From Halorussus marinus (GTDB lineage Archaea; Halobacteriota; Halobacteria; Halobacteriales; Haladaptataceae): DNA of 20,000 nucleotides. Location: assembly GCF_004765795.1 (NCBI RefSeq), contig NZ_SBIV01000001.1, forward strand, positions 736,236 through 756,235, read 5' to 3'. The translations under genes and the position numbers were made by a program. Of the stretch, positions 5,066 through 18,415 are shown piece by piece (the stretch's first letter is position 1; each line of letters starts with the position of its first letter). Below the pieces are notes generated by a model that saw nothing but the letters and a program-made list of their open reading frames with translations, was not told the DNA's origin and ran no database searches.

Positions 5066-7399
5066 CTACGTGGCGTCCGGCTCGGTCAGCGCCCCCAACA
5101 GGTACTCGGCCCGCTCGGCGTCGAGCGGCTCGTTTGCGTTCCCGCAGTGGGGCGACTGGACGCAGGCCGGACACCCGCCGGTCGAGTCGCAGTCACAGCC
5201 GCCGATCATCTCGGCGGTGGTCGAAAGGAGCGACTCGACGGTCTCGTAGCCCTCCCGGACCAGTCCGACGCCGCCGGGGTAGCCGTCGTAGACGAAGATC
5301 GTGCTCTGGTCGGTGTGGGGGTGGCGGGGCGTCGACAGGCCGCCGATGTCGCCCCGATCGCAGAGGAGTTCGAGCGGGAACAGCGAGATCAGCCCGTGCT
5401 CGGCGGCGTGGATGGCGCCGGGGAAGTCCCCGCGCTCGCGCACCTCGGCCTCGACGTCGGCGGGGACGGTGAAGTACAGCGCCGTCGTGGACAGCGACAG
5501 CTCCGGGAGGTCGAGCGACTCGCGAGCCAGCGCGTCGCCGGTGGTCCCGTCCCGGCGCTCGAACCCGGTGATCTGCTTGCGCATCGTGACGTCCGCGAGT
5601 CGGACCGGGACGTCCTCGCGGGTCGAGAGGCGCTTCTCGCGGCGGTCGGCTTCGACGGTGATGGCCTTCTCGTGGAGGACCTTGGTGTAGTAGTCGGCCC
5701 ACGTCGGCGTGAGTTCGGCGACGCCGGCGTCGAGGTCCAGTTCGACCACCTCGTAGGCCTGCCCCTGGTGGTAGTAGATCGCGCCGGGGTGGGCGTCGGT
5801 CAGCGCGTCGCCAAATGGTAGGGTCGCGACGGTCTCGCCGTTCCTGCGGTCGAGCAGGTTCACCTCGCGGTCGTCGATGGTCCGGAGGCTCGTCTCGTGT
5901 TGGGGACTGCCGCCGCCGTCGTACGTCCACCGGACTCCCTCGGCGGTGGTGCGGCGCTCGAGTTCGCCCGCGTCTTCGAGCCCCGCGACCAGATCCGAAA
6001 ACTCCTCGCCGAAGAAGCGCTCGTCGGCGGGTTCGAGCCACGTCTCGCGAGCCGCCGAGCGGACGTGATCGGGCATCAGTTCGTCGTTCGCGGGGTTCAC
6101 GACCGCGCGCTCGGGGTCGCCGTCGAACAGCTCGTCGGGATCGCTCATCAGGTACTGGTCGAGTTGGTCCTCGCCCGCGACCAGCCCCACCAGCGCGGGG
6201 TCCTCGCCCCGGCCGGCGCGGCCGGCCTGCTGGAACGCCGCCATCCGAGTGCCGGGGTAGCCGTCGAGCAGGACGGCGTCGAGCCCGCCGATGTCGACCC
6301 CGAGCTCCAAGGCGTTCGTGCTCCAGACGCCCGGAATCTCGCCGTCCCGGAGCCCGTCTTCGATCTCGCTTCGTCGGTCGCGATCCAGCGCGGCCTGATA
6401 CGCGGTCACGTCGGGCGCGAGGTCCCCGCGACCGCGCTCGCGGAGTTCGTCGGCGCTCTCCATCGCGTACCGCTCGGCGGCCTGTCGCGCCCGGGTGAAC
6501 GTCAGCGTCTGGTAGCCCTTCGAGACGAGGTCGGCGAACAGCCGCTTGGTCTCGGTGTGGCTCGACGTGCGGCGGCCGCTGGCTCCCGCCGCGGGGTTCT
6601 CGTACTCGGGCGGGTTCCACAATACCCAGTGGGTCGGGCCGGTCGCGCTCGCGTCCTCGTCGACGAGCCGGAACGATGATTCGGGCTCGCCGGTCACGCT
6701 CGCGGCGTGTTCGACCGGGTTGCCGATGGTGGCCGAACAGCAGACGAAATCGGGGTCCGAATCGTAGCGCTCACAGACCCGCCGGAGCCGGCGTACCACG
6801 AGCGAGACGTGGCTCCCGAACACCCCGCGGTACTCGTGGACCTCGTCGAGCACCACCGTTTCGAGGCCCTTGAAGAACCAGTCCCAGAGCCGGTAGGCGT
6901 GGGGCAACAGCGCGTAGTGGAGCATGTCCGGGGTCACGAGCAGGACGGTCGGCCGGCGGTCCCGGACCGCCTCTTTGTCCGTCCGGTCGAGCCGACCGGT
7001 GTATCGCTCGACCGAGACGCGGCTCCCGAACCCGAGGTCGCGCGCGAGCCCCGACAGCGTCTCGTGCTGGTCGTTGATGAGCGCGACCTGCGGGGCGACG
7101 TAGAGAGTCCGCCCGCCGTGATCCATCGCGCGCTCGAACGCGGGGACGGTGTAGGTCAGGCTCTTGCCGCTGGCGGTCGGCGTGGCGACGACGGCGTTCG
7201 CCCCGCCGCGGACCGCCTCGACCGCGGCGGCCTGATGGCGGTAGAGCGCCTCGATCCCGCGGTCGGCGAGCGCCGACTCCAGTCGCGATTCGAGCGCCAC
7301 GTCGCGGGTCTCGCCCGCCCGTCCGGGTCGGGTGCGGTGGGCCGCGATCTGGCCGTCGTAGTAGGGGCGCTCGCGGAGCCACTCGATTGTCTCGTCCAC
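5066..7399 (-). CDS. SF2 DEAD/DEAH-box helicase with C-terminal DUF1998 (MrfA/YprA, Hrq1, SftH family)
   Basis: Q-motif LYRHQ, Walker A TPTASGKS, DEVH, SATIGNP, TNALELGVDIG and QQAGRAGR. C-terminal YDGYPGGVG and CDCDSTGGCPACVQSPHCGNANEPLD tetracysteine signature. GTG start. Confidence 0.93.
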   Translation of the reverse strand: MDETIEWLRERPYYDGQIAAHRTRPGRAGETRDVALESRLESALADRGIEALYRHQAAAVEAVRGGANAVVATPTASGKSLTYTVPAFERAMDHGGRTLYVAPQVALINDQHETLSGLARDLGFGSRVSVERYTGRLDRTDKEAVRDRRPTVLLVTPDMLHYALLPHAYRLWDWFFKGLETVVLDEVHEYRGVFGSHVSLVVRRLRRVCERYDSDPDFVCCSATIGNPVEHAASVTGEPESSFRLVDEDASATGPTHWVLWNPPEYENPAAGASGRRTSSHTETKRLFADLVSKGYQTLTFTRARQAAERYAMESADELRERGRGDLAPDVTAYQAALDRDRRSEIEDGLRDGEIPGVWSTNALELGVDIGGLDAVLLDGYPGTRMAAFQQAGRAGRGEDPALVGLVAGEDQLDQYLMSDPDELFDGDPERAVVNPANDELMPDHVRSAARETWLEPADERFFGEEFSDLVAGLEDAGELERRTTAEGVRWTYDGGGSPQHETSLRTIDDREVNLLDRRNGETVATLPFGDALTDAHPGAIYYHQGQAYEVVELDLDAGVAELTPTWADYYTKVLHEKAITVEADRREKRLSTREDVPVRLADVTMRKQITGFERRDGTTGDALARESLDLPELSLSTTALYFTVPADVEAEVRERGDFPGAIHAAEHGLISLFPLELLCDRGDIGGLSTPRHPHTDQSTIFVYDGYPGGVGLVREGYETVESLLSTTAEMIGGCDCDSTGGCPACVQSPHCGNANEPLDAERAEYLLGALTEPDAT

Positions 7400-7503: not shown

Positions 7504-8460
7504 ATGGACCAACCGACCGCAACGAAGCGATGCGAGCGCGTCCTCGACGCGGTCGGCGACGCGGTCATCGCCGACCGGGAGTTCCTCGAAACCGTCCTCA
7601 CCGGGATCCTCGCCCGGGGCCACGTCCTGCTGGAGGACGTGCCCGGCACGGGCAAGACCCTGACCGCCCGGAGCTTCGCCGACGCGCTCGGACTCTCGTT
7701 TTCGCGCATCCAGTTCACTCCCGACCTCCTCCCGGCCGACATCACCGGCTCGAACGTGTACAACGAGGGGACCGGCGACTTCGAGTTCTCGCCCGGCCCC
7801 GTCTTCGCGAACGTGGTACTGGCCGACGAGATCAACCGCGCGCCGCCCAAGACTCAGGCCGCGCTCCTCGAAGCCATGGGGGAAGGACAGGTCACCGTCG
7901 ACGGCGACACCCACCGGCTCCCCGAGCCGTTCTTCGTGCTCGCGACCCAGAATCCGGTCGAACAGCAGGGCACCTTCGGCCTGCCGGAGGCCCAGCGCGA
8001 CCGGTTCATCGTCAAGACCGAGATGGGCTACCCCGACTTCGACGGCGAGCGCGAACTCATCGACCGGCGGGCCGACCGGGTCGCGAAGGCCCCGAGCGTC
8101 GAGGCGGTCCTGCAGGGCCGGGAGGTCCCCGAGATCCAACGGGTGCTCGAAGGCATCCGGGTCGACGACAAGCTCCGGGACTACGTGGTCGCGCTCGGGC
8201 GGGCGACCCGAGAGGACGACCGGATCGACGTCGGCGTCTCGCCGCGCGGAGTCCAGCGGCTGTTCGAGGCCGCCCGCGCCGGCGCGGTCGTCAACGGCCG
8301 CGACTACGTGGTGCCCGACGACGTCAAGCGGGTCGCACGGCCGGCGCTCGCCCATCGGCTGGTGCTGACCGACGAGGCGGGCGTCCGGGGCGTCGACCGG
8401 GAGGCGGTCGTCGCTGACGTGCTCGATCGGGTCGACGTGCCCGCTGTCACGCCCACCTGA
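7504..8460 (+). CDS. moxR: MoxR-family AAA+ ATPase, 318 aa
   Basis: Start moved to ATG 7504. Motifs GHVLLEDVPGTGKT, RIQFTPDLLPADITG, LADEINRAPPKTQAALLEAM, ATQNPVEQQGTFGLPEAQRDRF and GVSPRG. Confidence 0.95.
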   Translation: MDQPTATKRCERVLDAVGDAVIADREFLETVLTGILARGHVLLEDVPGTGKTLTARSFADALGLSFSRIQFTPDLLPADITGSNVYNEGTGDFEFSPGPVFANVVLADEINRAPPKTQAALLEAMGEGQVTVDGDTHRLPEPFFVLATQNPVEQQGTFGLPEAQRDRFIVKTEMGYPDFDGERELIDRRADRVAKAPSVEAVLQGREVPEIQRVLEGIRVDDKLRDYVVALGRATREDDRIDVGVSPRGVQRLFEAARAGAVVNGRDYVVPDDVKRVARPALAHRLVLTDEAGVRGVDREAVVADVLDRVDVPAVTPT

Positions 8461-8544
8461 GCGGCGCGCCGAACGTCATCGGGGCGGCTCCCGCGGGCCG
8501 GGAACCGCCGCAACTCGTTTTTCGCCCCGTTCGAATCGCCGTCC

Positions 8545-8838
8545 ATGGTCGAGAAAGCGAGACGCGCGAAGGTCGGACCCGCGCGTGCGGACCCGGACCG
8601 GACGTGGGAGGTGTTCGCCCGCGACGAGGCCGGCGACGACCCGCGGTACGTCGGGCGGGTTCGGGCGGGCGACGCCGACGCGGCCCACGCGGAGGCGAGT
8701 CGGCTGTTCTGCTGGTACGCCGCGGAGGTGTGGGTGGTTCCGTCGGCGGCGATCCGGACGTATGCGGTCGACGCCGCCGGCGAATCCGAGTCGGCGCTCC
8801 CGGAGACCGGCGACGAAGGCCGGACCCACGAGCTGTAA
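8545..8838 (+). CDS. Htur_1727-family small protein (PaaB-like; normally radical-SAM-partnered)
   Basis: MVEK...WEVFAR...PRYVGRVRA.DA..AHAEASRLFCWYAAEVWVVP...GDEGRT matches my recollection of this haloarchaeal family (WEVF-x-R...VG-x-V-x-A...LF-x-W...VW). TTTTTC lies 22-27 nt upstream. Confidence 0.75.
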   Translation: MVEKARRAKVGPARADPDRTWEVFARDEAGDDPRYVGRVRAGDADAAHAEASRLFCWYAAEVWVVPSAAIRTYAVDAAGESESALPETGDEGRTHEL

Positions 8839-8860
8839 GTCCGCGCGACCGGCGGCCGGC

Positions 8861-10513
8861 TCACCGGAGCGCCGCCACCAGCAGGACGATCGCGCCGACC
8901 GCGCCGACGAGCGCGACGGTCACGCCGCCGACCGCCGTCGGCGCCGCCGACGGGATCGCGTCCGCCACGCCGTCGGCGGCCGCGAGCGCGAGCCCCCCGA
9001 CCGCGACCGTTCCGACCGCGTGCAACAGTTCGGCGCGGCGGGTGTCGGCTCGCCGACCGACCTCGGCGCCGAGCGTCGTCGCGAACTCCCCCGCGTCCCA
9101 GACGACGAGCGCGAGCGCGAGCCCCGCGAGCACCGTCCAGAGGGGCACGTCAAGCGTCCCCGCGAACGCCGCCGCGACGAACAGCCCGCCGGCCGCGAGC
9201 GACGGCCCGGCGATCGCGTCGGCGACGAGCCCGATCGCGAAGCAAAACCAGAGGGCGAACACGCCGAGCGCCGCCAGAAACGCCACCAGCGCGGCGAGCC
9301 CGACGACGACGGTCTCGGCGCCGTAGAAGTCGACGACTCCCCCAGAGAGCCGGCGGAACTGGTCGGCGAGCGCCGCGTCGAGCCGCCCGGCGACGAACGC
9401 GACCAGTCCGTCGACGACCCGTTCGCCGGCGACCCACGACGCGGCGGCGATCGCGACGCCCGCGGCGTACGGCGCGTAGCCGACGAGCAGGTCGGCGGTC
9501 GGCGTGCGGGCCGACCCTCTCACGAGCCCGAGCGCGACCGCGACCGCGAGCGCGCCGACGGTCAGCCCGACGAGGGCGCGGCGAAGCCCGGTGTCGGTGG
9601 TCACGTCGACGAGCGGATCGAAGGCGGCGGGCGGGAGCGCCGCGCGGAGGGCGTCGGTCGGGACCGCGACGCCGACGAGGAGTGCGATCGGGAGCGCGGC
9701 CAGCGCCGCGGTCGCGACCCAGACCGCCGCGCGGTCGAGGGCGTCCGCGACGGCCGCCACTTCGAGGTCGCCGACCGTCGCCCCGCCCGCGAGTTCGCGG
9801 GTCGGGAGCGCCCGGAGCGCCCGGTAGGTCGCGAACGCCGCGGCCGCGACCACCGCGGCGAACGACCCGATCTCCGGGTCGGACGCGGCGGGGGCGAACA
9901 GCCAGCCCGACGCCCCGGTCGCGACCCGGTCGACGATCCGGTCGACCGCCACCAGATCGTACTCCGTCGCGAGGGCGGTGGCCGCGAGCCCGACGGCGAC
10001 CGCAACCGGGACGACGGCGGTCCGGACCACCAGCCCCCAGCACCGCCCCAGCGTCTCGCCGGTGGCGACCCGCCGGACCGACGCGGCCGCGCCGAAGACC
10101 GCGAGCGTACAGCCACAGAGCACCGCCGCGATCCCGAGGAGCCGGAGGCTCTGGCCCGCCACCCGGGTCGGGTTCGGTGCGGGGAACACCGCCGCGAACT
10201 CGACGAGCAGTTCGTAGCCGATCCCGGCCGCGACAGCGCCGACCGCGGGCACGACGAGGAGGCTCGCCGCCAGCGTCCCGGAGACCCGCCACGAGTCGAG
10301 GTCCAACAGCCAGAGCGCGGCCGCGAGCCCGACCGCGCCCGCCCCGGCGACCGGCACGCCGGCGCCGACCCCCGCGAGCCGGCTCAGGAGCGCGACGCCA
10401 CAGACGGTGCCGAGTCCGGCGATCGCGGTGCTCGTTCGGGTCGGGGCCCAGTTTCGCTCCGGGACGGTGTCGGTCGGGCTGTCGGGCGCACGATCGGGAG
10501 TAGCGTCTGTCAT
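8861..10513 (-). CDS. Polytopic membrane protein, 550 aa (last gene of the transglutaminase/DUF58 operon)
   Basis: Likely start ATG 10513 (MTDATPDRAPD...), overlapping the DUF58 stop (ATGA). Many hydrophobic helices. The C-terminal 'LVVWDAGEFATTLGAEVGRRADTRRAELLHA' segment is typical of haloarchaeal DUF58-associated membrane proteins. Confidence 0.82.
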   Translation of the reverse strand: MTDATPDRAPDSPTDTVPERNWAPTRTSTAIAGLGTVCGVALLSRLAGVGAGVPVAGAGAVGLAAALWLLDLDSWRVSGTLAASLLVVPAVGAVAAGIGYELLVEFAAVFPAPNPTRVAGQSLRLLGIAAVLCGCTLAVFGAAASVRRVATGETLGRCWGLVVRTAVVPVAVAVGLAATALATEYDLVAVDRIVDRVATGASGWLFAPAASDPEIGSFAAVVAAAAFATYRALRALPTRELAGGATVGDLEVAAVADALDRAAVWVATAALAALPIALLVGVAVPTDALRAALPPAAFDPLVDVTTDTGLRRALVGLTVGALAVAVALGLVRGSARTPTADLLVGYAPYAAGVAIAAASWVAGERVVDGLVAFVAGRLDAALADQFRRLSGGVVDFYGAETVVVGLAALVAFLAALGVFALWFCFAIGLVADAIAGPSLAAGGLFVAAAFAGTLDVPLWTVLAGLALALVVWDAGEFATTLGAEVGRRADTRRAELLHAVGTVAVGGLALAAADGVADAIPSAAPTAVGGVTVALVGAVGAIVLLVAALR

Positions 10514-11928
10514 GAGTGTGCGAGGAGCGTCCGTAGCGATCGTTCGAGCGCGACGTCGAGCGGGTCGGCGACGTCCCAGTCGACCGTCGACGCGCCGGTC
10601 GCCCGGAGGTCCCAGAGCCGTAGCGTCCGTCTGGCGGCCGCGACCGTCCGGCCCGGCGAGTCGTCGCCGGTCACGTCGGGGCTGAGGACCGCCAGTTCGT
10701 GACCCCGGACCGCAAGCGACTCCGCGAGCGACTCGGGCCAGCCGTCGAGCGCCGGCGAGACCAGCACGACCTGCGAGTCCGCCGGCAGTCGGGCCAACAG
10801 CCGGCGGATCACGGGGTCGGTCCGACCGCCGTCCGGGGCCGCCGCGCCGGGGGCGTCGGCCGCATCGTCCGGGCGCTCGGCCGTCGGCTCCCGGGGCCCG
10901 GCGGCCGGCGCGGCCAGCGAGCCGTCGGACTCGTCGGTCGGGACCGATCCGGGGTCGTCGCGCTCGGCCGCGCGCCCGACCGCCGCGAAGACCCGCCGGG
11001 CGCTCCCGACCCCGTCGTCGGTGCCGACCCACGGGAGGCCGTCGGGCGGGAGCGCGCCCTCGTAGTCGCCGTCCCGGAGCCCGACCGCGGTGACGGTCGT
11101 CGCCACGCCCGCCGCGGTGAGCGCGTCGTACAGGCGTTCGGCCGCGTACGCCGACAGCTCGGCGCCGTTCGGGTAGCCGGCCCGGGCGGTCGCCCGCGCG
11201 ACGGGACGGGCGTCCACGACGACCACGGTCCGAGCCGCCCGCTCCTCGCGGAACCGGACCGTCGTGAGGTCGCCGGTCTTGCCGAACCGCCGCCAGTCGA
11301 TCCGGCTCAGCGAGTCGCCCGGCCGGTACTCCCGGGTGGAGTGAAACTCGATTCCCTCCCCGCCCGAGTCGGTCGTGTGGGTGCCGACCCGGCGGGGCGA
11401 CGGGCTCGCGAACGGCGGCTCGGACACTCCGAGCGAGCACGAGAGGGTGTCGGCGCCCGACGCCTCGACCGCGACGGTCGCCCGGTCGGTCCCGCTCAGC
11501 GTCCGGACCCGGACCGCGGGGTCGCCGAACGCGTGGTCCCCGCGGGTGGCGACGACCGAGTACGTCGCCGTCGCGGTCTCGCCCGGCCGGAGCGCGAGCG
11601 CGGCGCGCGGCGACCCCTCGACCACCCGTAGCTCGTCGGGGACCGCGTCGACGAGCCGGAGGTCCGCGAGCGCCGACTCGCCCTCGTTGCGGACGGTGAG
11701 TTTCACCTCGACGGTCGCGCCCGGTGGCGGCTCTGCGGGCGAGAACGACCGCTCGACGCTCGGCGCGGGCGCGTCCGACAGCGCCGAGAGCGCGCCGTAC
11801 GCGACGTAGCTCAGCGGGACGACCGAGGCCGCCAACAGCCGCGGTTCGGCGTACAGCAGGCCGATCGCGGTCAGCAGGAGCGTCCCGGCGAGGCCGCCCC
11901 GCCACCGCGGGACGCGCTCGCGGGTCAC
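10510..11928 (-). CDS. DUF58 domain protein (MoxR-associated, vWA-like)
   Basis: Two N-terminal TM helices and an Ig-like region, then the DUF58 signature GEGIEFHSTREYRPGDSLSRIDWRRFGKTGDLTTVRFREE and VVVVDAR. GTG start overlaps the upstream TGA; SD GGAGGTGA at 11935-11942. Confidence 0.92.
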   Translation of the reverse strand: MTRERVPRWRGGLAGTLLLTAIGLLYAEPRLLAASVVPLSYVAYGALSALSDAPAPSVERSFSPAEPPPGATVEVKLTVRNEGESALADLRLVDAVPDELRVVEGSPRAALALRPGETATATYSVVATRGDHAFGDPAVRVRTLSGTDRATVAVEASGADTLSCSLGVSEPPFASPSPRRVGTHTTDSGGEGIEFHSTREYRPGDSLSRIDWRRFGKTGDLTTVRFREERAARTVVVVDARPVARATARAGYPNGAELSAYAAERLYDALTAAGVATTVTAVGLRDGDYEGALPPDGLPWVGTDDGVGSARRVFAAVGRAAERDDPGSVPTDESDGSLAAPAAGPREPTAERPDDAADAPGAAAPDGGRTDPVIRRLLARLPADSQVVLVSPALDGWPESLAESLAVRGHELAVLSPDVTGDDSPGRTVAAARRTLRLWDLRATGASTVDWDVADPLDVALERSLRTLLAHS

Positions 11929-12563
11929 GTCGCCTCACCTCCGTCTCCGGTCGATCCGGCGTCGAAGGGGTCCTCGAGCGCCGCGACCGTGCGCTCGATG
12001 CGGCGCCGGCGCTCGGCCTCGGGGTCGAGCCACTTTCGGAGCCGGGCCCCGAGCGGGAACGCCGGCCCGTCCTCGGTGGCGAGAAATGCCGCGGCGGTCT
12101 GGTCGGCGGTCCACGCGCCGGTCTCGACCGCCCGGGTCGCCGCCTCGGGCGAGCAGTCAGCCCGGCGGGCGTGAGCCGCCTCCGCGGTCTCTGCGAGGGT
12201 CGCCCGGACCGACGCCAGCGCCGCCGGGTCGCCCGCGACCGCGTCGGCGACGCGCTCGTCGAGGGTCCGACCGGTCCGGGCGCGATCGGCGGCGGTGACG
12301 CGCTCGGGCGGGTCGCCGACCCCTTCGAGCGGCGCCGACGGCCCGACGGGAACCGGCGGGCGAGCCGACCCCGACCGGGCGCTCCACGCGGCGTAGAGCC
12401 CGACGACCGCGCCGAGCGCGAGCAGGAGTCGCCGAGGGTCGCGAGATTCGAGGCGGGCGGCGACCGCGGCCACCTGCTCGGCCGTGATGTCGGGCGCGAA
12501 GACGACGACCGCGGTGGCCGCGGTCAGGAGCGCGCCGAGGCCCCCGAGCAGACGCCGGCCCAT
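11925..12563 (-). CDS. Conserved haloarchaeal membrane-anchored protein of MoxR/DUF58 operons, 212 aa
   Basis: Two N-terminal hydrophobic segments and a C-terminal 'GAWTADQTAAAFLA...RLRKWLDPE' motif. Translationally coupled at both ends (TGATG and GTGA overlaps). Confidence 0.8.
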   Translation of the reverse strand: MGRRLLGGLGALLTAATAVVVFAPDITAEQVAAVAARLESRDPRRLLLALGAVVGLYAAWSARSGSARPPVPVGPSAPLEGVGDPPERVTAADRARTGRTLDERVADAVAGDPAALASVRATLAETAEAAHARRADCSPEAATRAVETGAWTADQTAAAFLATEDGPAFPLGARLRKWLDPEAERRRRIERTVAALEDPFDAGSTGDGGEAT

Positions 12564-15500
12564 CAGTCCTCACCCCCCGCGCCGTCGGCGTCGGCGTCGT
12601 CTTCGGGCCGGGTCGCCGCCTCGATGGCCGCCAGCGCGTCCTCGACGCGGGCGAGTCGGTCGGCCGGCGAGCGCGCGCCGTACTCGACGTCCCGGAACGC
12701 GTCTCTGAGCGTCGCCACCGCGTCGGCCGGGAGGTCGTCGACCCGGACGGCGTGGACCGCGAGCTCGCCGGGGGTCATCGCGGCCGGCCGGCGCACCGAG
12801 ACGGCGCCGAGGAACTCGCGCCACGCCTCCCGGAGCGTCCGATAGGAGTCCTCGTCGGTGGTTTCGGCGTCGTTGGCGGCCGGGGTGCCGACGCGGTCCT
12901 CGACCGACCGGCGAACCCGCGACCGCATCGCTTCGATCCGCTCGCCCAGCCACGCCCGGAGCCGCGCGAGCAGTTCGCGGACGGTCGTCTCGCGGGCCAC
13001 GAGCTCCCGGAGCGCGGCCGCGACCGACGCGATCGCTTCTTCGAGGAACGCCGCGATCCCGAACAGCGCGGCGACCGCGAGCCGCGGCAAGGCGGTCGTC
13101 GCGGCGAGCACGACGCCCGCGACGCGTCGGGGCGTCACGCCCCGTCGAGCCGCGAACAAGGCCAGCCCGCCGACCGCGAGCGCGACCCCGAGCAGGACGC
13201 CCGCGAGGTTCGCGAACAGCCCCGAGACGGTCTCCCGGGCGGTCTGGCCGTCGGCCGAGACGACGACGTCGGCGCTCGACGCGAACGGGAGCCGGGCGGT
13301 CACGGTGCCGTCGACGCCGGTTGTCAGGTCGGCGCCGCCGACCGCCACCGACGCGTTCGCCACCGGCTCGCCGTCGTAGTTCGCCGACACCTCGACGCCG
13401 GTGGCCGGCAGGGCGACCGGAAGCGACGGCTCGGCGGTGACGTTCAGCGCCGGGAGTTCGACGGTCGTCTCGCCCGACACCGGGCCGCGCGAGGCCGCGA
13501 CCGTGACGGGACCGGGCGAGTCGGGGAGTCGGATCTCTGCCCGACCCCGGCGGTCGGTCTCGGCGACTCGCTCGCCGCCGACCCGCACGTCGGCGTTCCG
13601 GAGCGGGACGTCGTCGACCGTCGCGGTCACGACCACCTCGCCGCCGGTGACGATCTCGCCGGATACGGTCAGCGTGGCGTTGGTCTCGAGCGCGTACGAT
13701 CGAGAACCGTTGGTCTCGTTGGCGACCGAGAGCGCGCCGGGCGGCGTCGAGACCGAGGCGGGGCGGTCGAACGCCAGCGACCCCACCGCGGCGGTCCGGG
13801 AGACCTCGCGTACCGTCACGGTGAGGTTCCGGGCGTAGGGGACCTCGCCGGACACTCGTCCCGCGTCGTCGGTCGTCCCGACCGGCTCGCCGTTGAACAG
13901 GACCTCCACGCCCGACGCCGGCGATCCGTCGCGAGCGACGGTCGCGGTCACGGTCGCGCCCGGCACCGGCGTGCGGTTGAGCGAAACGTCGTAGCCGGCG
14001 GCGGCCGTCTCGTCGGCCCCGTCGGTCTCGTCGATCTCTTCGGAGTTGTCGGTCTCGTCGGTCTTTTCGGAGCTGTCGGTCTCGTCGGTCCCGTCAGTGT
14101 CGTCGGTGTCCTCGGCGTCGTCGGTCGTTTCGCCCGGTTCGCTCGATCCGTCGCCGGTCGTCTCGGTCGCTTCTCCGCCGGTCGTCTCGTCCGATCCGCT
14201 CTCTTCCCCGCCGGACTCGCCCGACTGCGTCCCGCCGGCGTCGTCCGCCGTCGCGCCCGAGCCGTCGGGCGTGCCGGTCGACGCCCCCGGGTCGGTCGCG
14301 GTCCCGGGTTCGCCGTCGGCCGTCCCGTCCGACCCGCCCTCGGTCGCCGGGCCCGCCGTCGAGCCACCGGCGGTGGCGTCGGCCGTCGCGCCGGTGGCGG
14401 TGCCGACACCGTCCCCGCCCGTCTGGCCCGCCCCGGGCGTCACGGTGCCCTCCGCGGAGAACGTCTCGTTCGGGCTCCCCTCCTCGACGGGGTCGTAGTC
14501 GGTCTCGCCGGTCCGGTTTTCGAGCGCGGCCTGTTCGGCCCGGAGTCGGTCGCTCCCCGGCGTGGGGTCGAACCGGACCCACCCGACCTCCGGGAAGTAC
14601 ACCTCGACCCACGCGTGGGCGTTCATCCCCCGGACTTCGTAGGTGTTTGGCCCGACCTGCTGGCCGGTCGAGTAGCCGACGACGTACCGGGCGGGGACGC
14701 CCTGGGACCGGAGCATCGCTGTCATCGAGGTCGCGAAGTACTCGCAGTAGCCTTGCTCCATCTCGAAGACGAACTCGGCGGCCGCGTCCTCGCCGGGGCG
14801 GCTGGCGTTCAGCGAGTAGCTCTTGTTCGCTTCGAGCCACGATTCGATCCGGGTCGCGGTCCCGTACGGCGAGTCGGCGTCGGCGGTCAGGTTCGCGGTG
14901 AACGGGGCGAGCCGGCGCTCGGTGTCCTCGGGCAGGGCGGTGTACCGCGACTCGATCTCGTCGGGGTACTCGCGGCCCGCGGTGCGGAGCAACGTCGGGT
15001 CCTGCGGAGGTCGGTGGCTCACGCCCGTGTAGGTCGTGCCCGCCGGCAGGGCCGTCTCGCTGGCGAACGCACGGCGGTCGGTGACGAGCGGCGAGTCGAC
15101 GCCCGAGATCGATTCGGGACGCCAGACGCTCGGGAGCGCGGTCGCCGACTGATTGAGTCGGACCCGGTACTCGACGCGCTCGCCGGCGATTCCCTCGCCG
15201 CCGAGCGGCCCGGTGTACGGTCGGGGCTCGCCGGATCGCTCCCAGCCAGCACCGGTGTAGGTGTCGTACGCGCCGGTCCGCCAGTAGCTCTTCGCGCTGG
15301 CTCGGACGGTGAAGTGGACCGCGGCGTTCTGCGATCGGAAGGCGCTGGCGCCGTCGCTCGCCAGCGGCCCGCCCACGTCGGTTCGCTCGCCGGGATTGAG
15401 CGCGCCGAGGCTCCCGCCCCCGGAGAGCGCGCCGGCGCCGCCACCGCTACCGGCGGGCGCGGCGTCGTACGGGTCGGCGTTCGGTTGCGGGACGGTCGAG

Positions 15501-15655
15501 CCCAGCGGCGAGTCGCCCAGCCCCGACGAGGAGACCGCTGGCACGACTATCGCGGCGAGCGCGACGGCCGCGACACAGCACACGACCAACAGCGTCCGGA
15601 GGCGGTCGCGCGACTGCTCGTCGTCGGGCACCAGCGAGGGCGACGTGTCGGTCAT
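12563..15655 (-). CDS. Membrane-anchored transglutaminase-like (TgpA-type) protein with Ig-like repeats and a C-terminal DUF4129-like domain, 1030 aa
   Basis: YWRTGAYDTYTGAGW (TgpA N-region) and the Cys-His-Asp triad GYCEYFA / HAWVEVY / FDPTP. Then an acidic G/T/D linker, beta-rich repeats (TDDAGRV, TDRRGRA, TGVDGTV), TM helices and C-terminal TPGELA...FRDVEYG. Confidence 0.92.
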   Translation of the reverse strand: MTDTSPSLVPDDEQSRDRLRTLLVVCCVAAVALAAIVVPAVSSSGLGDSPLGSTVPQPNADPYDAAPAGSGGGAGALSGGGSLGALNPGERTDVGGPLASDGASAFRSQNAAVHFTVRASAKSYWRTGAYDTYTGAGWERSGEPRPYTGPLGGEGIAGERVEYRVRLNQSATALPSVWRPESISGVDSPLVTDRRAFASETALPAGTTYTGVSHRPPQDPTLLRTAGREYPDEIESRYTALPEDTERRLAPFTANLTADADSPYGTATRIESWLEANKSYSLNASRPGEDAAAEFVFEMEQGYCEYFATSMTAMLRSQGVPARYVVGYSTGQQVGPNTYEVRGMNAHAWVEVYFPEVGWVRFDPTPGSDRLRAEQAALENRTGETDYDPVEEGSPNETFSAEGTVTPGAGQTGGDGVGTATGATADATAGGSTAGPATEGGSDGTADGEPGTATDPGASTGTPDGSGATADDAGGTQSGESGGEESGSDETTGGEATETTGDGSSEPGETTDDAEDTDDTDGTDETDSSEKTDETDNSEEIDETDGADETAAAGYDVSLNRTPVPGATVTATVARDGSPASGVEVLFNGEPVGTTDDAGRVSGEVPYARNLTVTVREVSRTAAVGSLAFDRPASVSTPPGALSVANETNGSRSYALETNATLTVSGEIVTGGEVVVTATVDDVPLRNADVRVGGERVAETDRRGRAEIRLPDSPGPVTVAASRGPVSGETTVELPALNVTAEPSLPVALPATGVEVSANYDGEPVANASVAVGGADLTTGVDGTVTARLPFASSADVVVSADGQTARETVSGLFANLAGVLLGVALAVGGLALFAARRGVTPRRVAGVVLAATTALPRLAVAALFGIAAFLEEAIASVAAALRELVARETTVRELLARLRAWLGERIEAMRSRVRRSVEDRVGTPAANDAETTDEDSYRTLREAWREFLGAVSVRRPAAMTPGELAVHAVRVDDLPADAVATLRDAFRDVEYGARSPADRLARVEDALAAIEAATRPEDDADADGAGGED
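14021..14090. repeat. 27-bp tandem repeat (about 2.6 copies) in the transglutaminase linker
   Basis: gtcggtctcgtcgatctcttcggagtt (14021-14047) / gtcggtctcgtcggtcttttcggagct (14048-14074) / gtcggtctcgtcggtc (14075-14090). The first two copies are 24/27 identical. Encodes TDETDSSEKTDETDNSEEIDETD. Confidence 0.8.
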
Positions 15656-15728
15656 GTCGGGTGCGGACCCGGCCCCGGGTCGATCGCGTCGGGGCCGAGA
15701 GGTACGGGTGCAAACTCCGAGGACACAC

Positions 15729-15735
15729 GTAAAAA
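15729..15735 (-). promoter_or_regulatory. Candidate TATA box for the transglutaminase operon
   Basis: TTTTTAC on the minus strand about 75 nt upstream of ATG 15655. Confidence 0.4.
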
Positions 15736-15786
15736 GATTGGTGAATGTGGGAGTCGTTGCCGAGTCGATCGCTCGCGTCCGGCGGT

Positions 15787-15843
15787 CGTTTAAGTGCTTT
15801 TGGCGATAAGGAGAATATACGAGCGGAAGCCGATCCGGGTTCT
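15787..15843 (+). repeat. Left copy of the 57-bp inverted repeat flanking the RNAP-epsilon gene
   Basis: cgtttaagtgcttttggcgataaggagaatatacgagcggaagccgatccgggttct; 45/57 identical, ungapped, to the reverse complement of 16684-16740. Confidence 0.88.
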
Positions 15844-16600
15844 ACTGGTCTCGCGTCTCCTCGAAGCCGCCGCTCCGCCCGTCGCCGGACCCTCGGGTTT
15901 CGAGGCTCGGGAGGTTCGGGTCGCGGTAGGGGTTGTGGCCGTGGACCGCCTCGTCGAGCCCCCGCTCGTCGATCTGGTCTCTCAGGACCCGTCGGAGCCG
16001 GTTCAGGCTCGTGATGTCGATGCCGTGTTTTTCGGCGAGGTCGGCGAACGCCGGATCGTCGGTGATCGAGTCGAACTGATCGTAGAGGGCTTCGAGGCGC
16101 TCGGGCGGGAGGCTCCCGATCCACTCGGCGTCGTGGAGCCCGAGGTACCGCTCGCGCTCGGTGTCGACGACGTGGCGGATCGTGACGAGCGCGACCTTCG
16201 GGATCGCCCGCTGGCTCCCGAACGCGGTGAGATCGAGGTCGGCCATCACGCCGATGACCCGGTCGCGTTGCCACGGCGTCAGCGACAGGTCGTTGCAGAG
16301 GGCGTGGGTGATCCGGAGCTTGTCGAGGCGGTGCATCCGCTCGCTGTGGCCGGCCATCGCGGCGTGGCGCTCCTCGTGGAGTCGGCGGACGCTGTCGGAG
16401 AGGTCCGCGTCGGGCGAGCGCGCACGGCCGATCTGGGTCGCGGCCGGCGTCACCGGCCCCCACTGACGGACGATGCCGTCGCGCTGGAGGTCCGCGCGCG
16501 CGACCGCGCCGTCGCCGGCACGCCGGCTGAAGCGGCGCTCGTCCGCGGGGTCGTGTTGCCACGTCGGAAGCGCCGCGTCGGAGTCGCTCTCGGTCATCAC
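15842..16600 (-). CDS. rpoeps: Haloarchaeal protein annotated as 'DNA-directed RNA polymerase subunit epsilon'
   Basis: Motifs recalled for this family: RQWGPVTPAATQIGRA.SPDADLSDSVRRLHEE, LDKLRITHALCN.L.LTPWQRD, DLTAFGSQRAIPKVALV.IRHVVD, DITSLNRLRRVL and NPYRDPNLP. Start is GTG 16600 or ATG 16597. Confidence 0.8.
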   Translation of the reverse strand: MMTESDSDAALPTWQHDPADERRFSRRAGDGAVARADLQRDGIVRQWGPVTPAATQIGRARSPDADLSDSVRRLHEERHAAMAGHSERMHRLDKLRITHALCNDLSLTPWQRDRVIGVMADLDLTAFGSQRAIPKVALVTIRHVVDTERERYLGLHDAEWIGSLPPERLEALYDQFDSITDDPAFADLAEKHGIDITSLNRLRRVLRDQIDERGLDEAVHGHNPYRDPNLPSLETRGSGDGRSGGFEETRDQ

Positions 16601-16623
16601 CCACCTCTAGCGGCGCGACGCGG

Positions 16624-16633
16624 TTTAAATATA
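16624..16633 (-). promoter_or_regulatory. TATA box of rpoeps
   Basis: TATATTTAAA on the minus strand, 24-33 nt upstream of GTG 16600. Confidence 0.65.
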
Positions 16634-16683
16634 CGGCTCGTCGAACCGTCGAACGCCGTGGCTCGGCGGGCGATTGCTTCGGG

Positions 16684-16740
16684 AGAACGGCGATCCGTTT
16701 CGCCTCGTATCTACACCTTATCGCCAGAACCACTTAAACG
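16684..16740 (-). repeat. Right copy of the 57-bp inverted repeat flanking the RNAP-epsilon gene
   Basis: Minus strand reads cgtttaagtggttctggcgataaggtgtagatacgaggcgaaacggatcgccgttct. Confidence 0.88.
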
Positions 16741-16748
16741 AACCGCGA

Positions 16749-17702
16749 TCAGCGAGTCGATTCGGACTCGTCGAACGCCGCACGGAGGTGGTCGGCGATC
16801 TCGGCGATGGCCTCGCGGGCGCGGTCGATCTCCTCGGTCATGGTCGCGAAGCCGTGGATCATGTCGTCGTAGTTGACGTGGCGGACGTCGACGCCGTCGG
16901 CCGCCAACTGGTCGGCGTAGTTCGCGCCGCCGTCCCGGAGCGGGTCGAAGCCCGCGGTGAGGACCGTCGCCGGCGGGACCCCCGAGAGGTCACAGGCGTT
17001 CGACGGGTCGGCGTAGGGGTTGCGCTCGTGAACGTCGCTTTCGAAGTAGCACTCACGGAACCACTCTAGATCCCCCCGCTCTAAGACCCGACCGCCGTGT
17101 TTCTCGACCGACTCCTGACCGTCCTCGACGCCGACGCCGGGGTACAGAAGCGCCTGATAGTCGATATCGGGGCCCGCCTTCTCGGCCGCCATCAGGGACG
17201 CGACGGCCGCCAGCGCGCCGCCCGCGCTGTCGCCCGCGACCGCCAGCCGACCGTCGCCCGCGAGCGCGTCGGTGTTGTCGGCCGCCCACTTCGTCGCGGC
17301 GTAGGCGTCCTCGACCGCCGCCGGGAACGGGTGCTCGGGCGCGAGCCGGTAGTCGACCGCCATCACCACGCAGTCGCTCTCGCGGGTCAGATGGCGACAC
17401 AGTAGATCGTGGCTCGCCAGATCGCCGATGACGTACCCGCCGCCGTGGAAGTAGACCACCGTCGGGAACGGCCCCTCGCCGGTGGGCCGGTAGAGTCGGA
17501 CCGGGAGGTCGCCGTCGGGCCCCGGGATCGTCCGATCGACGGTCCGGCCGACCGACGGGGGGTTCCGGTTCTGAACCCAGTTCGTGAGCCGCATCAGGAG
17601 GCGCAAGCGGCCGAGCCCGACCTCTCGGATCGGGGCGAGGCCGAGCCGCTCGCGCCGGTCGAGCATCGCCCGCGCCTGCGGGTGGATCTCGTCGGCTTCC
17701 AT
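16749..17702 (-). CDS. Alpha/beta hydrolase, hormone-sensitive-lipase (family IV) esterase
   Basis: Oxyanion HGGG, DYRLAPEHPFPAA, nucleophile GDSAG, FDPLRD and MIHGF. Confidence 0.93.
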   Translation of the reverse strand: MEADEIHPQARAMLDRRERLGLAPIREVGLGRLRLLMRLTNWVQNRNPPSVGRTVDRTIPGPDGDLPVRLYRPTGEGPFPTVVYFHGGGYVIGDLASHDLLCRHLTRESDCVVMAVDYRLAPEHPFPAAVEDAYAATKWAADNTDALAGDGRLAVAGDSAGGALAAVASLMAAEKAGPDIDYQALLYPGVGVEDGQESVEKHGGRVLERGDLEWFRECYFESDVHERNPYADPSNACDLSGVPPATVLTAGFDPLRDGGANYADQLAADGVDVRHVNYDDMIHGFATMTEEIDRAREAIAEIADHLRAAFDESESTR

Positions 17703-17809: not shown

Positions 17810-18415
17810 TCAGCCCTCGGGGTCGTAGAACTCCGCCCGGAGGTCGTCGTCGTCGAGTTCGGTCGCCGTCTCCGAGAGGCGGGTGCGAAGTTCGGCGATC
17901 TCCTCGGTGAGTTCGACGTACTCGTCGTTGGCTTCGAGTTCTTCGGGGGCCTTCTTGGCTTCGATCGCGGCCTTCTTGTTCGCCAGCGACAGGAACCGCC
18001 GCATCTGAGCGTCGTAGGTGGTGCGCCGCACCAGCGTCTCGACGGTCTCGAGGAGCTCTTCGGCGTTCGACACCGGCTTTTCGAGGTACGCGTCGAAGCC
18101 GAGTTCGAGGATGTCGAAGTCGGGTTCGACCGCCGAGACCAGCGCGACCCGGCAGGTGAGCCCCCGATCGTGGATCTCGTCGAGCACGTCCTCGCCCGAG
18201 ATGTCGGGCATCCGCCGGTCGAGGAGCACGACGTCGACCTCGGCGTCGAGCTTGTCGAGCGCCTCGGAACCGCTGTAGGCGGTCCGGACCGCGTACTCCT
18301 CTTCGAGCCACTGTGCGTACGCGTCGGTGATCGGCCGCTCGTCGTCGGCTATCAGGACTGTCGCTTGCTGGGGCATGGAACCGGTCTCGTTCTGACTCCC
18401 TGTTGATTCACTCAT
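17810..18415 (-). CDS. Response regulator: receiver domain + HalX domain
   Basis: VLIADDE, phosphoacceptor VLLDRRMPDISG, VSAVEPDFDI and YLEKPV. C-terminal YD...RRFLSLANKKAAIEAKK...ELEANDEYVEL is HalX-like. An alternative start at MPQQA is possible. Confidence 0.88.
   Translation of the reverse strand: MSESTGSQNETGSMPQQATVLIADDERPITDAYAQWLEEEYAVRTAYSGSEALDKLDAEVDVVLLDRRMPDISGEDVLDEIHDRGLTCRVALVSAVEPDFDILELGFDAYLEKPVSNAEELLETVETLVRRTTYDAQMRRFLSLANKKAAIEAKKAPEELEANDEYVELTEEIAELRTRLSETATELDDDDLRAEFYDPEG

Follow-up and report, generated by a model that had tools for sequence, protein, structure and literature searches.

Inverted copies of a promoter-shaped box enclose the RNA polymerase epsilon gene of Halorussus marinus, and the box accompanies this gene in many Halobacteria

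The gene for RNA polymerase subunit epsilon of Halorussus marinus is enclosed by two inverted copies of a short conserved unit, here named the epsilon box, which among the Halobacteria genomes searched was found only where an epsilon gene was also present. The conserved part of this unit, as read from its sequence, has the shape of a complete archaeal core promoter. The reading to which we give an even chance is that the boxes form a dedicated, epsilon-linked promoter class from which the epsilon gene itself is transcribed convergently, in sense and antisense, and that inversion of the gene is a by-product.

Epsilon was discovered in the 1980s in purified Halobacterium RNA polymerase and, according to a 2021 review, improves transcription of native DNA, the enzyme with epsilon being efficient on native templates while the enzyme without it is not (PMC8305020). 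In its account of the subunit this review calls the role of epsilon 'enigmatic' and, for a machine at the core of information processing, finds so patchy a distribution 'astounding': the gene is present in nearly all Natrialbales (47 of 49) and in few Haloferacales (3 of 71) (PMC8305020, main text and Supplementary Text S8.a). No printed description of the box was found in the literature outside subscription journals, where our searches turned up only this review or unrelated papers.

The window, by which we mean the whole 20-kb stretch of H. marinus DNA that was analyzed, contains the following features around the epsilon gene.

15786..15843, plus strand: left arm, one epsilon-box unit, facing the 3' end of the epsilon gene (antisense)
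15789-15795, plus strand: TATA-like TTTAAGT of the left arm
~15815-15819, plus strand: putative start of the left arm, from the 26-nt TATA-to-TSS spacing of HF2 class I repeats
15842..16600, minus strand: epsilon gene (haloarchaeal 'RNA polymerase subunit epsilon'); the listed ORF of 252 aa has GTG at 16600, and the next codon is ATG
16624..16633, minus strand: putative proximal TATA-like block of the gene itself, TATATTTAAA on the minus strand
16684..16741, minus strand: right arm, one epsilon-box unit, sense, upstream of the epsilon gene
16738-16732, minus strand: TATA-like TTTAAGT of the right arm
~16712-16711, minus strand: putative transcription start of the right arm
16749-17702: esterase gene, between the right arm and the HalX-type gene in H. 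marinus
17810..18415, minus strand: HalX-type response regulator gene, a conserved flank marker for the orientation of the epsilon block in other species of the genus

The best ungapped 57-nt inverted repeat in the window, with arms at most 2 kb apart, matched at 45 of 57 positions, compared with best scores of 35–39 in each of 20 dinucleotide shuffles of the window; the 57-bp inverted repeat first predicted around this gene is thus real. Only two registers in the 20 kb scored 45/57 or better, both at the epsilon locus. A repeat search returned arms of 58 nt (15786-15843 and 16684-16741) which were 79% complementary at a spacing of 840 nt, the runner-up inverted pair in the same 2.5-kb stretch being 37 nt long at 70%. 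The further details of the original prediction also held: the left arm ends at 15843, inside the stop codon of the gene (15842-15844), the inner end of the right arm at 16684 lies 51 nt (predicted as about 50) from the AT-rich TATA-like block at 16624-16633, and none of the 17 window ORFs tested contained a transposase or recombinase domain by Pfam. The closest database relatives of the enclosed gene are annotated by NCBI as 'DNA-directed RNA polymerase subunit epsilon', in agreement with the name it had been given, and the ORF itself gave no match to Pfam (0 families at E<=0.01) or NCBIfam.

The first T of the right-arm box is located 141 nt before the epsilon gene start, and this arm corresponds to the near-universal upstream unit of other epsilon loci. 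Between box and gene, the TTTAAA of the proximal block begins 32 nt before the epsilon ATG, a position that would fit a near-leaderless transcript, and equivalent TATA-like blocks are present in other genera. Because the gene has this proximal TATA of its own, basal epsilon expression can be accounted for without the box.

The conserved block of the box starts at a weak BRE-like position, includes TTTAAGT and ends near +12. In five lineages the profile extended from about -35 to about +12 and then vanished, the information content of the units being zero beyond about +12 to +25. TTTAAGT is followed at 26–27 nt by a conserved TAGATAC, and an invariant stretch of about 16 nt lies between the TATA word and the putative start (TTCTGGCGAYAAGG in the H. 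marinus family). The units occur singly, in direct tandem, and in tandem arrays of 2–4 units some 95–170 nt apart in intergenic DNA, each with a promoter-like head. Past the box, orthologous units differ in both sequence and length. Recurrent features of the units are purines at the start (GAGG/GAAGG) and, close by, the word TTCT/TTTC. A solo box upstream of menA was 92% identical across six species while its flanks were 43% and 39% identical, and the box was present at the orthologues in 35/35 family genomes and upstream of the gene in other families. These observations strongly support the earlier proposal that the fixed blocks represent selected sites and not a decaying duplication.

The closest published likeness is with the class I intergenic repeats of the halovirus HF2, for which Russ, Pfeiffer and Dyall-Smith (2021) describe units of about 58 bp with identity blocks separated by variable positions, each a complete haloarchaeal promoter with TATA mapped at -26 and the TSS at the G of TAGAG (PMC8707807). 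The same report states that these repeats, fused to the bgaH reporter, are active in Haloferax volcanii without viral factors, and its authors put forward the additional conserved blocks as binding sites for specific regulators (PMC8707807). The epsilon box shares with them the unit length of about 58 bp, the alternation of identity blocks and variable positions, the TATA-bearing word CTTTAAGT, a TAGA(G) initiator at a spacing equal within 1 nt, and a position and orientation conserved among relatives. TTTAAGT was invariant in a nine-sequence alignment which included HF2 IR4, and the HF2 beta motif (TCTTTAAGTC / CTTTAAGT) is present in the box, as CTTTAAGT in many units and as GTTTAAGT in the two arms of the window. 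In contrast, the stretches of 17–18 nt that separate TATA from start show no relation to each other (the HF2 sequence is CATTAGCTCCCGTCTAT), and the core of the HF2 gamma motif, CGTCTNNTAGAG, is absent from the epsilon box, only TAGA being common and preceded in the epsilon box by GGCGAYAAGGNG. The HF2 repeats are also viral and not tied to one host gene, whereas the epsilon box is cellular. Since the HF2 repeats are active in Haloferax volcanii, a species that by the 2021 review has no epsilon, and epsilon is rare in Haloferacales, the TATA/initiator skeleton alone does not need epsilon.

To describe the placement of the box in the H. marinus family, copies within 1.3 kb of the gene were counted at 35 epsilon loci, all of which had at least one. 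Upstream copies in the sense direction were found at 32 of the 35, and four upstream copies faced away from the gene. Downstream copies were present at 28 loci (25 by script, plus three which the script had mis-scored as 'inside'), and every one of them pointed inward. A sense box was found about 100–250 nt upstream of epsilon in seven families; among 39 epsilon loci from other families, 27 had, at E<=0.01, a sense unit not more than about 450 nt upstream and eight, including all four from one genus, had no unit at this threshold. The box is thus present at related loci, and the absence around orthologues that would have spoken against the original prediction was not observed. For 301 units, the first co-directional ORF was epsilon in 116 and a further 44 ran antisense into epsilon, with ORF calling that was crude and included spurious frames. 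A common downstream gene for the boxes away from epsilon was considered and rejected, as under the same crude calling these boxes preceded small lineage-specific sets of genes (menA-like at seven loci, DsbA-like at six, and a few others).

The phyletic sample comprised 401 Halobacteria genomes searched with a strict box pattern, and the lists of box and gene carriers were compared by hand. Of these genomes, 104 contained the strict box and 151 contained the epsilon gene. All 104 box-bearing genomes carried the gene and none of the 250 gene-less genomes carried the box, counts which overstate the number of independent events because of kinship among the genomes. The reversed-pattern control gave no match in any genome searched. 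In one family of 155 genomes the gene was present in only two, and the same two were the sole box carriers there, with two and eight dispersed copies. The strict box was lacking in 47 of the 151 epsilon-bearing genomes, and the largest Haloferax-like genus of the sample, with 22 genomes, yielded no epsilon homologue. The 3.76-Mb genome of H. marinus contains exactly four box copies, and dispersal of the motif without linkage to the gene, which would also have spoken against the original prediction, was not observed; of the two copies away from epsilon, one precedes a menA-like gene and the other a membrane-protein gene. Some genomes have three or four epsilon copies, each with boxes, and plasmid copies were also found: one plasmid copy retains the convergent box pair, and a related box precedes epsilon paralogues of about 30% identity on small plasmids. 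A viral origin or use of box or epsilon was rejected, since tblastn gave no epsilon match in 50,697 phage records and viral contigs contained no true box; the universal pattern matched there once, by chance, in an unrelated contig and within coding sequence that resembles a tail-fibre gene.

The predicted structure of epsilon has a confident core at residues ~80–225 with a cyclin/TFIIB-like fold, preceded by 80 N-terminal residues that are conserved in sequence but without a confident fold. In a VIA-align comparison with 48,161 chains, the first 41 of the best 50 matches were cyclin-fold entries; a Z of about 10 is middling for an all-helical model. Among these entries, structures of TFIIB, TFB and Brf (5wh1, 5iy6, 7o4i, 6cnb, 8ity, 1ais) gave Z 10.3 for yeast TFIIB, 10.2 for the human TFIIB core (rmsd 2.6 over 96 residues), 9.4 for Brf2, 9.1 for Brf1 and 8.3 for Pyrococcus TFB, and all of these superpositions fell on the first cyclin repeat. 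Cyclins proper scored equally against the epsilon core, and the fold therefore does not single out TFIIB. Epsilon differs from the TFIIB family in showing only one evident cyclin-like repeat and in lacking a match to the TFIIB cyclin-repeat domain (PF00382), a model which matched 24 times elsewhere in the same genome. A zinc ribbon is also unlikely, as no Cys was invariant in a 30-sequence alignment and only C102 reached 90% or more. The hhalign probability between epsilon and the 10 TFB paralogues of the genome was 0.2%, a profile search of PDB sequences gave 0 matches, and Foldseek against the PDB returned nothing at E<=0.001. The core is thus a predicted cyclin/TFIIB-like fold without a sequence link to the TFBs. 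Docking of epsilon with TBP gave a score of 0.00 (mark 0.32), which argued neither for nor against contact of the two proteins.

In TFIIB the first cyclin repeat is a neighbor of TBP and touches the DNA immediately downstream of TATA, the very place occupied by the invariant part of the epsilon box. Among the explanations offered in the original prediction, a dedicated promoter class or autoregulatory loop is indirectly the best supported, by the nesting of box-bearing within gene-bearing genomes, the promoter-shaped conservation profile and the modelled fold. In the arrangement that we favor, each arm would act as an extended core promoter made up of the weak BRE-like position, TTTAAGT, the ~16-nt invariant stretch, the initiator-like TAGATAC and about 12 transcribed bases, and this promoter class would work with epsilon, a putative cyclin/TFIIB-like factor that co-purifies with RNA polymerase and that may be either required for use of the box or a regulator of it. 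The right arm would be the ancestral unit, placed upstream of the near-leaderless promoter and facing the gene, and the left arm, with its tandem relatives in other species, would drive transcription into the gene from its 3' end. By controlling both the sense and the antisense transcript of its own gene epsilon could maintain a homeostatic loop, and the few further boxes, at the menA-like and the membrane-protein gene, may form a small regulon.

Between identical neighbors the epsilon block was found in both orientations in different species of the genus; on a 15-genome tree at least three independent flips are required, and two well-supported sister pairs differ in orientation. The overlaps between direct and inverted alignments, of 53 and 63 nt, coincided exactly with the outermost arms, and the inversion breakpoints fall inside these arms. 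The original prediction had also raised the possibility of inversion or mobilization ends acted on in trans, of which inversion is supported at the evolutionary level and mobilization is conjectural. These observations, together with the genomes that hold several box-bearing gene copies and the plasmid copies, are what would be expected of a programmed invertible or mobile cassette whose arms are sites for a recombinase in trans and in which the orientation or copy number of epsilon is regulated. We nevertheless judge such a cassette quite unlikely, since the 17 window ORFs tested contained neither a recombinase nor a transposase domain, the sequences next to the two arms do not form a direct repeat, the box also occurs singly or in direct tandem, where inversion is impossible, its conservation profile is that of a promoter, and the whole block flips together with its arrays, leaving sense and antisense wiring equal in both states. 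Transposon or MITE ends were rejected on the same absence of a target-site duplication (judged by eye), the presence of only four genome copies, and the single or directly repeated units. In bacterial invertons such as hin and fimS, inversion also takes place between inverted repeats, and the epsilon locus resembles them in that such repeats bound a segment which occurs in both orientations and in that the crossover falls within the repeats. It differs from them in that no recombinase was found next to it, in flipping a whole gene with its promoters rather than a promoter relative to a gene, in that its two states were seen between species rather than within a population, and in a symmetric arrangement with no evident on/off consequence. 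Because the arms are inverted copies of about 55–60 nt, recombination from arm to arm has flipped the block several times between its fixed neighbors, and as the flip leaves the internal arrangement unchanged and no recombinase was found nearby, inversion looks like a by-product of homology and not a switch, one that is probably tolerated.

The units could also be genes for short non-coding RNAs of about 85–120 nt, with a shared promoter and 5' end, which would act with epsilon, for example as polymerase-binding or antisense regulators, the RNA itself being the functional product. The intergenic tandem arrays with their promoter-like heads, the antisense RNA that downstream units would yield against the epsilon gene, and the recurring purine-rich start and TTCT/TTTC word are in keeping with this, but a functional RNA is hard to reconcile with orthologous units that diverge in sequence and length after the box, and with the loss of all information content there. 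A permissive Rfam search gave nothing in window positions 15000-17500 and only one tRNA and one sub-threshold match, neither to a unit, at 12 further loci, and the mean MFE z-score of positions +1 to +45 in 108 units was -0.06 in sense, 0.02 in antisense and -0.07 in the distal control. With no Rfam match, no excess structure and no conservation past about +12, the paralogous small-RNA units suggested in the original prediction were not borne out, and we consider this explanation quite unlikely. Hairpins in the units were no more frequent than base composition predicts, and two 'compensatory' changes between the arms, seen by eye, are anecdotal given z-scores near zero. A leaderless small peptide was rejected, as the putative start reads ATG in only part of the units of one family, with ACG in its place in further units, and the remaining lineages lack a start codon at this position. 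A simpler alternative is that the box is the strong upstream promoter of the epsilon gene, or the operator of another regulator, which was copied in tandem, in inverted orientation and elsewhere, so that epsilon does not read the box and the two co-occur through origin and spread at the gene. This is agreeable with the upstream sense copy being the most universal, with the activity of HF2 repeats of the same TATA word and spacing in Haloferax volcanii without viral factors, and with the lack of a DNA-binding domain recognizable in the sequence of epsilon. We think it unlikely, although less so than the RNA genes, because distant copies remain 92% identical while their flanks drift, because such copies occur only in gene-bearing genomes, including the two exceptions among 155, and because a generic promoter does not need an invariant 16 nt between TATA and start.

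A bolder form of the dedicated promoter class, possible but to our mind doubtful, would make epsilon a promoter-specificity subunit: a single-repeat TFIIB-like factor which reads the invariant ~16 nt from TATA to start, has its own gene bracketed by converging promoters, sets its own level through sense and antisense transcription, and travels with its boxes as a module between lineages and plasmids. Bacterial alternative sigma factors likewise use autoregulated dedicated promoters. By analogy, epsilon would resemble them as a patchily distributed, polymerase-associated accessory factor with a few highly similar promoters, one of which stands before its own gene; epsilon and the sigma factors differ in domain of life, fold and promoter architecture, and dependence of the box on epsilon is a proposal.

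The epsilon box provides a concrete candidate for a DNA partner of epsilon, being short, specific, found only with the gene and adjoining it, and the modelled TFIIB-like fold adds a structural hint; together they make the role of epsilon directly testable with standard tools. If the link holds, epsilon would be a polymerase-associated archaeal factor specific to one promoter class and outside the known multiplicity of TBP and TFB paralogues, and, should it indeed confer promoter specificity, an archaeal counterpart of an alternative sigma factor. Whatever the mechanism, the locus offers a clear case from nature in which a gene has inverted repeatedly by way of short, promoter-like sequences in inverted orientation.

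The inverted repeat reported in the original prediction was located at 15786-15843 and 16684-16741, as two 58-nt arms which are 79% complementary with 840 nt between them; the runner-up inverted pair in the searched stretch was 37 nt long at 70%. When the whole window was scanned for ungapped 57-nt inverted repeats with arms no more than 2 kb apart, the match of 45/57 was reached nowhere else, and 20 dinucleotide shuffles used as control peaked at 35-39 each. As had been described, the arms enclose a single ORF of 252 aa (15842-16600, minus strand), with the left arm overlapping its stop codon, and the TATA-like sequence placed about 50 nt from the right arm corresponds to an AT-rich block at 16624-16633, 51 nt inside that arm and approximately 32 nt before the ATG. 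The ORF gave no Pfam or NCBIfam match, and its closest database relatives carry the NCBI name 'DNA-directed RNA polymerase subunit epsilon' (epsilon), the nearest named being from Halorussus. No transposase or recombinase domain was found in the 17 window ORFs tested, in line with the earlier reading. Domain matches identified the following neighbours:

16749-17702, minus strand, esterase (Abhydrolase_3/LipP1)
minus strand, transglutaminase-like protein
minus strand, HalX response regulator

The esterase gene separates the right arm from the HalX regulator gene and ends 8 nt from the arm, and the transglutaminase-like gene occupies the downstream side of the block, where ten relatives (loci L140-L149) have ABC-transporter genes. 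The flanks of the epsilon block are rearranged in the window genome relative to these loci. The cluster at 7504-15655, which encodes a MoxR-type AAA ATPase, a DUF58-domain protein, DUF7269 and DUF7519 ORFs and a 1030-aa transglutaminase-like membrane protein, is a common MoxR/DUF58/transglutaminase neighbourhood with no relation to the epsilon-box finding.

Each arm is one copy of a promoter-shaped element, here called the epsilon box, with the TATA-like word TTTAAGT. Its core of about 37-40 nt, CGTTTAAGTRNTTCTGGCGAYAAGGNGNANATACGAG, was found by pattern search in exactly four copies in the window genome, of which two are the arms, and an nhmmer profile confirmed the same four (E about 1e-12 each; next best E 19). 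The genome scan proposed earlier thus added two copies beyond the arms:

third copy, intergenic, between ABC permease and menA-like prenyltransferase genes, pointing toward the downstream gene
fourth copy, intergenic, flanked by a small membrane ORF and the gene of a YdjM-like membrane protein, pointing toward the downstream gene

Within the family of the window genome (the source family), 33 of 35 genomes carry 1-9 copies at no more than 3 mismatches, many arranged in inverted pairs separated by about 1 kb or in tandem at 120-170 nt spacing, and the reversed pattern used as control had 0 matches across the 35 genomes. Six species of the source genus share the solo box ahead of menA as an orthologous copy, and its 39 nt have 92% pairwise identity compared with 43% in the 78 nt upstream and 39% in the 80 nt downstream, which argues that it is functional in place and not a scar, and upholds the view of selected sites rather than a decaying duplication.

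A single sample of 401 Halobacteria genomes was used to search for both the box (slightly relaxed pattern) and the gene (epsilon homologue at E<=1e-20), and the genome lists were compared by hand. The box was found in 104 genomes and the gene in 151; the gene was present in 104/104 box genomes and the box in 0/250 gene-less genomes, counts in which related genomes are not independent.

Occurrence of the box and the epsilon gene by family (f numbers), as genomes with the feature out of genomes sampled
f1: box 7/7, gene 7/7
f2: box 2/155, gene 2/155 (same two genomes)
f4: box 16/22, gene 16/22 (same sixteen genomes)
f5: box 1/85, gene 17/85
f6: box 68/98, gene 95/98
f7: box 0/7, gene 3/7
f8: box 8/11, gene 8/11
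f9: box 1/7, gene 2/7
f3, f10, f11: box none, gene none

The two lone f2 genomes with epsilon carry 2 and 8 dispersed boxes, and the presence of both box and gene in them is hard to explain by ancestry alone. In one of these, G176, the end of a tRNA gene (L043 1835-1909; 56.7 bits in Rfam) is about 90 nt ahead of a box unit. The distribution of the gene in our sample agrees with that given in Supplementary Text S8.a of PMC8305020 (47/49 Natrialbales, 24/46 Halobacteriales and 3/71 Haloferacales). The 47 gene-bearing genomes without a strict box mostly have a diverged one: when 39 epsilon loci outside the source family, 36 from genomes without a strict box, were scanned with a profile of 108 units, 31 gave a match at E<=0.01 and 27 had a unit in sense orientation no more than about 450 nt ahead of epsilon, often 2-4 in tandem. 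The eight loci without a match at E<=0.01 were four of genus g41, two of g80, G118 and G395, and the two g80 loci had weak box-like matches below threshold. The part of the box universal across families is TTTAAGTNNYTCTSGYSACAASG, with the bases around the putative start varying by lineage.

The comparison of orthologue flanks proposed in the original prediction was made for the source family in one uniform scan of epsilon plus 1.3 kb each side, and the box was present at 35/35 loci. Upstream sense copies occur at 32/35; most of these loci have the proximal copy 133-219 nt ahead of the start, and some loci of genus g2 have it at about 610-790 nt. Downstream copies facing into the gene were scored automatically at 25/35 loci, or 28/35 on adding L127, L131 and L133, where copies had been scored as inside because ORF extension overran the true stop, which was found within their matches. 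Outward-pointing downstream copies numbered 0 among the 35 loci, and four upstream copies point away from epsilon (L116, L121, L122 and L123, in G026, G031, G032 and G033). The latter lie about 180-245 nt upstream of epsilon, and three stand back to back with sense copies whose TATA starts are only about 37-74 nt away, which would make a divergent promoter pair. This 35-locus arrangement indicates that the inverted repeat of the window is this genome's version of a convergent layout that runs through the family, and since the second copy is absent or co-directional (f8) in other families, the right arm represents the ancestral unit. The epsilon matches of G028, G007, G001 and G005 have one stop codon within the aligned range; they may be genes with a shorter C-terminus that the search extended past, or genes that are damaged. 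Some genomes (G330, G336 and G284, family f8) have 3-4 full-length epsilon genes on different contigs, each with an upstream box. Several of these genes are closely followed by another box of equal orientation, at a distance of about 860 nt from the first, which would be consistent with gene and boxes having been duplicated as a unit.

By crude ORF calling, epsilon was the first co-directional ORF for 116 of 301 units (median TATA-to-ATG 169 nt) and a further 44 ran antisense into epsilon, the remaining targets being small lineage-specific sets (menA-like at 7 loci, DsbA-like at 6 and a few others). At L008 and L010 (genus g2) a near-perfect palindrome, GTTAGTATTGTATACTAAC, lies about 110-130 nt after the box, between it and a 177-aa helix-turn-helix-like ORF, and may be an operator for another regulator.

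The information content of the box in five lineages climbs at about -35, peaks over TTTAAGT and the next 16 nt, is still high through TAGATACGAG or lineage equivalents, and is lost by about +12 to +25. Judged from the sequence, this extent is that of an archaeal core promoter (BRE, TATA, proximal element and initiator), for which Babski et al. give the haloarchaeal elements TTWT, CGAAA and -10 WW (PMC4983044). Of the elements described so far, the one most like it is the 58-bp class I intergenic repeat of halovirus HF2, for which promoter activity was verified by reporter, the start was mapped to the G in TAGAG with the TATA motif from -26 within TCTTTAAGTC, mutations at the TATA and start region affect activity, and activity was seen in Haloferax volcanii (PMC8707807). 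On alignment with HF2 IR4, box units share TTTAAGT and TAGA at a spacing equal within 1 nt, whereas the 17-18 nt between them are unrelated. From the HF2 TATA-to-start spacing, putative starts fall at about 15815-15819 (plus strand) in the left arm, antisense to epsilon, and about 16712-16711 (minus strand) in the right arm. As the HF2 repeats are active in Haloferax volcanii, the shared TATA/TAGA skeleton is a generic strong promoter, and any epsilon-specific reading has to come from the invariant bases that follow the TATA. In f6 and g2 units (for example L085, L100 and L101, and L007-L015) a run of four or five T (GGGCTTTTCGCGG, GAAGATTTTCGCGG) is conserved as little as about 10-15 nt past the putative start; since oligo-T is an archaeal termination signal, these units might yield only very short transcripts or pause the polymerase.

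An AlphaFold2 model of epsilon (30-sequence alignment) had pLDDT >90 over residues ~80-225, and the N-terminal 80 residues were of low model confidence yet conserved in sequence. The proposed Foldseek comparison returned nothing against the PDB at E<=0.001, and the TFIIB/cyclin-like fold, one of the two alternatives named earlier, was instead recovered by exhaustive VIA-align search, where the first 41 of the 50 matches listed were cyclin-fold entries, at Z values (about 10) that are middling for helical models.

VIA-align matches of the epsilon model
Cyclin C, Z 10.5
yeast TFIIB in pre-initiation complex, Z 10.3
human TFIIB core, Z 10.2, rmsd 2.6 over 96 residues
Brf2, Z 9.4
Brf1, Z 9.1
Pyrococcus TFB, Z 8.3

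A PDB profile search with epsilon gave 0 matches, hhalign against the ten TFB paralogues of the window genome gave a probability of 0.2%, and no zinc-ribbon cysteines were conserved in the 30-sequence alignment. The model points to a cyclin/TFIIB-like fold, yet epsilon cannot be classed as a TFB. All TFIIB-family matches fell on the first cyclin repeat. In TFIIB this repeat is positioned beside TBP and on the DNA immediately past the TATA box, the region in which the invariant box sequence sits.

By tblastn, 13 haloarchaeal plasmid records matched the epsilon gene and none of the phage records did; a Halorussus plasmid copy has the same convergent box pair. Paralogues with ~30% identity to epsilon over residues ~50-230 are carried by a 14.5-kb Halarchaeum plasmid (L103, CDS 7728-8789), which also has a P4-type primase and a recombinase, and a 29.8-kb Natrinema plasmid (L105, match 6001-6489). 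Each is preceded by a related box, TTTAAGT...TTACAAC...GTAGATGAAGGGA, recognized by inspection (nhmmer E only 0.9 and 4.3). These paralogues hint at a larger protein family whose boxes co-evolve with it and which may have originated on plasmids. In viral contigs the universal pattern matched once, within coding sequence of an unrelated virus, and this match was attributed to chance.

Three other accounts were weighed against that of a dedicated promoter. A generic promoter or foreign operator that merely arose at the epsilon gene is unlikely; it has to be set beside both the skeleton shared with HF2 and the confinement of the box to gene-bearing genomes. That the arms are short non-coding RNA genes, with products acting with epsilon, we consider quite improbable. 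Hairpins and two apparent compensatory changes between the arms were picked out by eye and discounted, as the units folded much like shuffles. The small-RNA option did not hold up, with no Rfam match on the units and folding no better than dinucleotide shuffles (108 units, first 45 nt past the putative start: MFE mean z -0.06 sense and 0.02 antisense; distal control -0.07). Unstructured transcripts from box units may be compatible with this result.

A programmed invertible or mobile cassette is the least probable of these accounts, although the block does invert between species. The HalX regulator gene is a conserved neighbour at 15/20 source-genus loci, on the same strand as epsilon at 10 and the opposite strand at 5. 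Across 13-kb regions of ten genomes, gene '0' and the regulator lie on one side and ABC-transporter genes on the other throughout, and the epsilon block alone differs, lying in one orientation in G023, G029, G020 and G024 and in the other in G022, G019, G030, G025, G032 and G027. The G023 segment 5914-7036 aligns inverted to G022 7168-6036 (76.8% over 1,156 nt) with both ends at box units, and the flanks align directly. An ML tree of concatenated regulator and epsilon proteins from 15 genomes, thus of two linked genes and not a species tree, required at least three orientation changes, with well-supported branches alone forcing three. Sister pairs G018/G029 (support 100/98) and G023/G027 (100/100) are opposite in orientation; in G023/G027 the direct flank and inverted block alignments share 53 nt at one end and 63 nt at the other, precisely on the outermost inverted units, and G018/G029 behaves alike, indicating that recombination within the arms flipped the block repeatedly. 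Because the whole block flips, the sense unit, gene and inward units turn together and the internal arrangement is the same in both states. We read the inversions as a tolerated consequence of inverted promoters and not as a switch, so that of the earlier suggestion of inversion or mobilisation ends acted on in trans, the flipping at the arms stands and is taken as a by-product.

The reading we prefer, evenly poised between belief and doubt, is that each arm represents an extended promoter of a dedicated class, which would work with epsilon. No description of the box was found in the searchable literature. Placed convergently around the epsilon gene, the box would let the factor govern its own sense and antisense transcription, the few additional copies elsewhere would constitute a small regulon, and inversion of the block would be a side effect. 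The inverted repeat first observed is confirmed, and the finding extends beyond the window.
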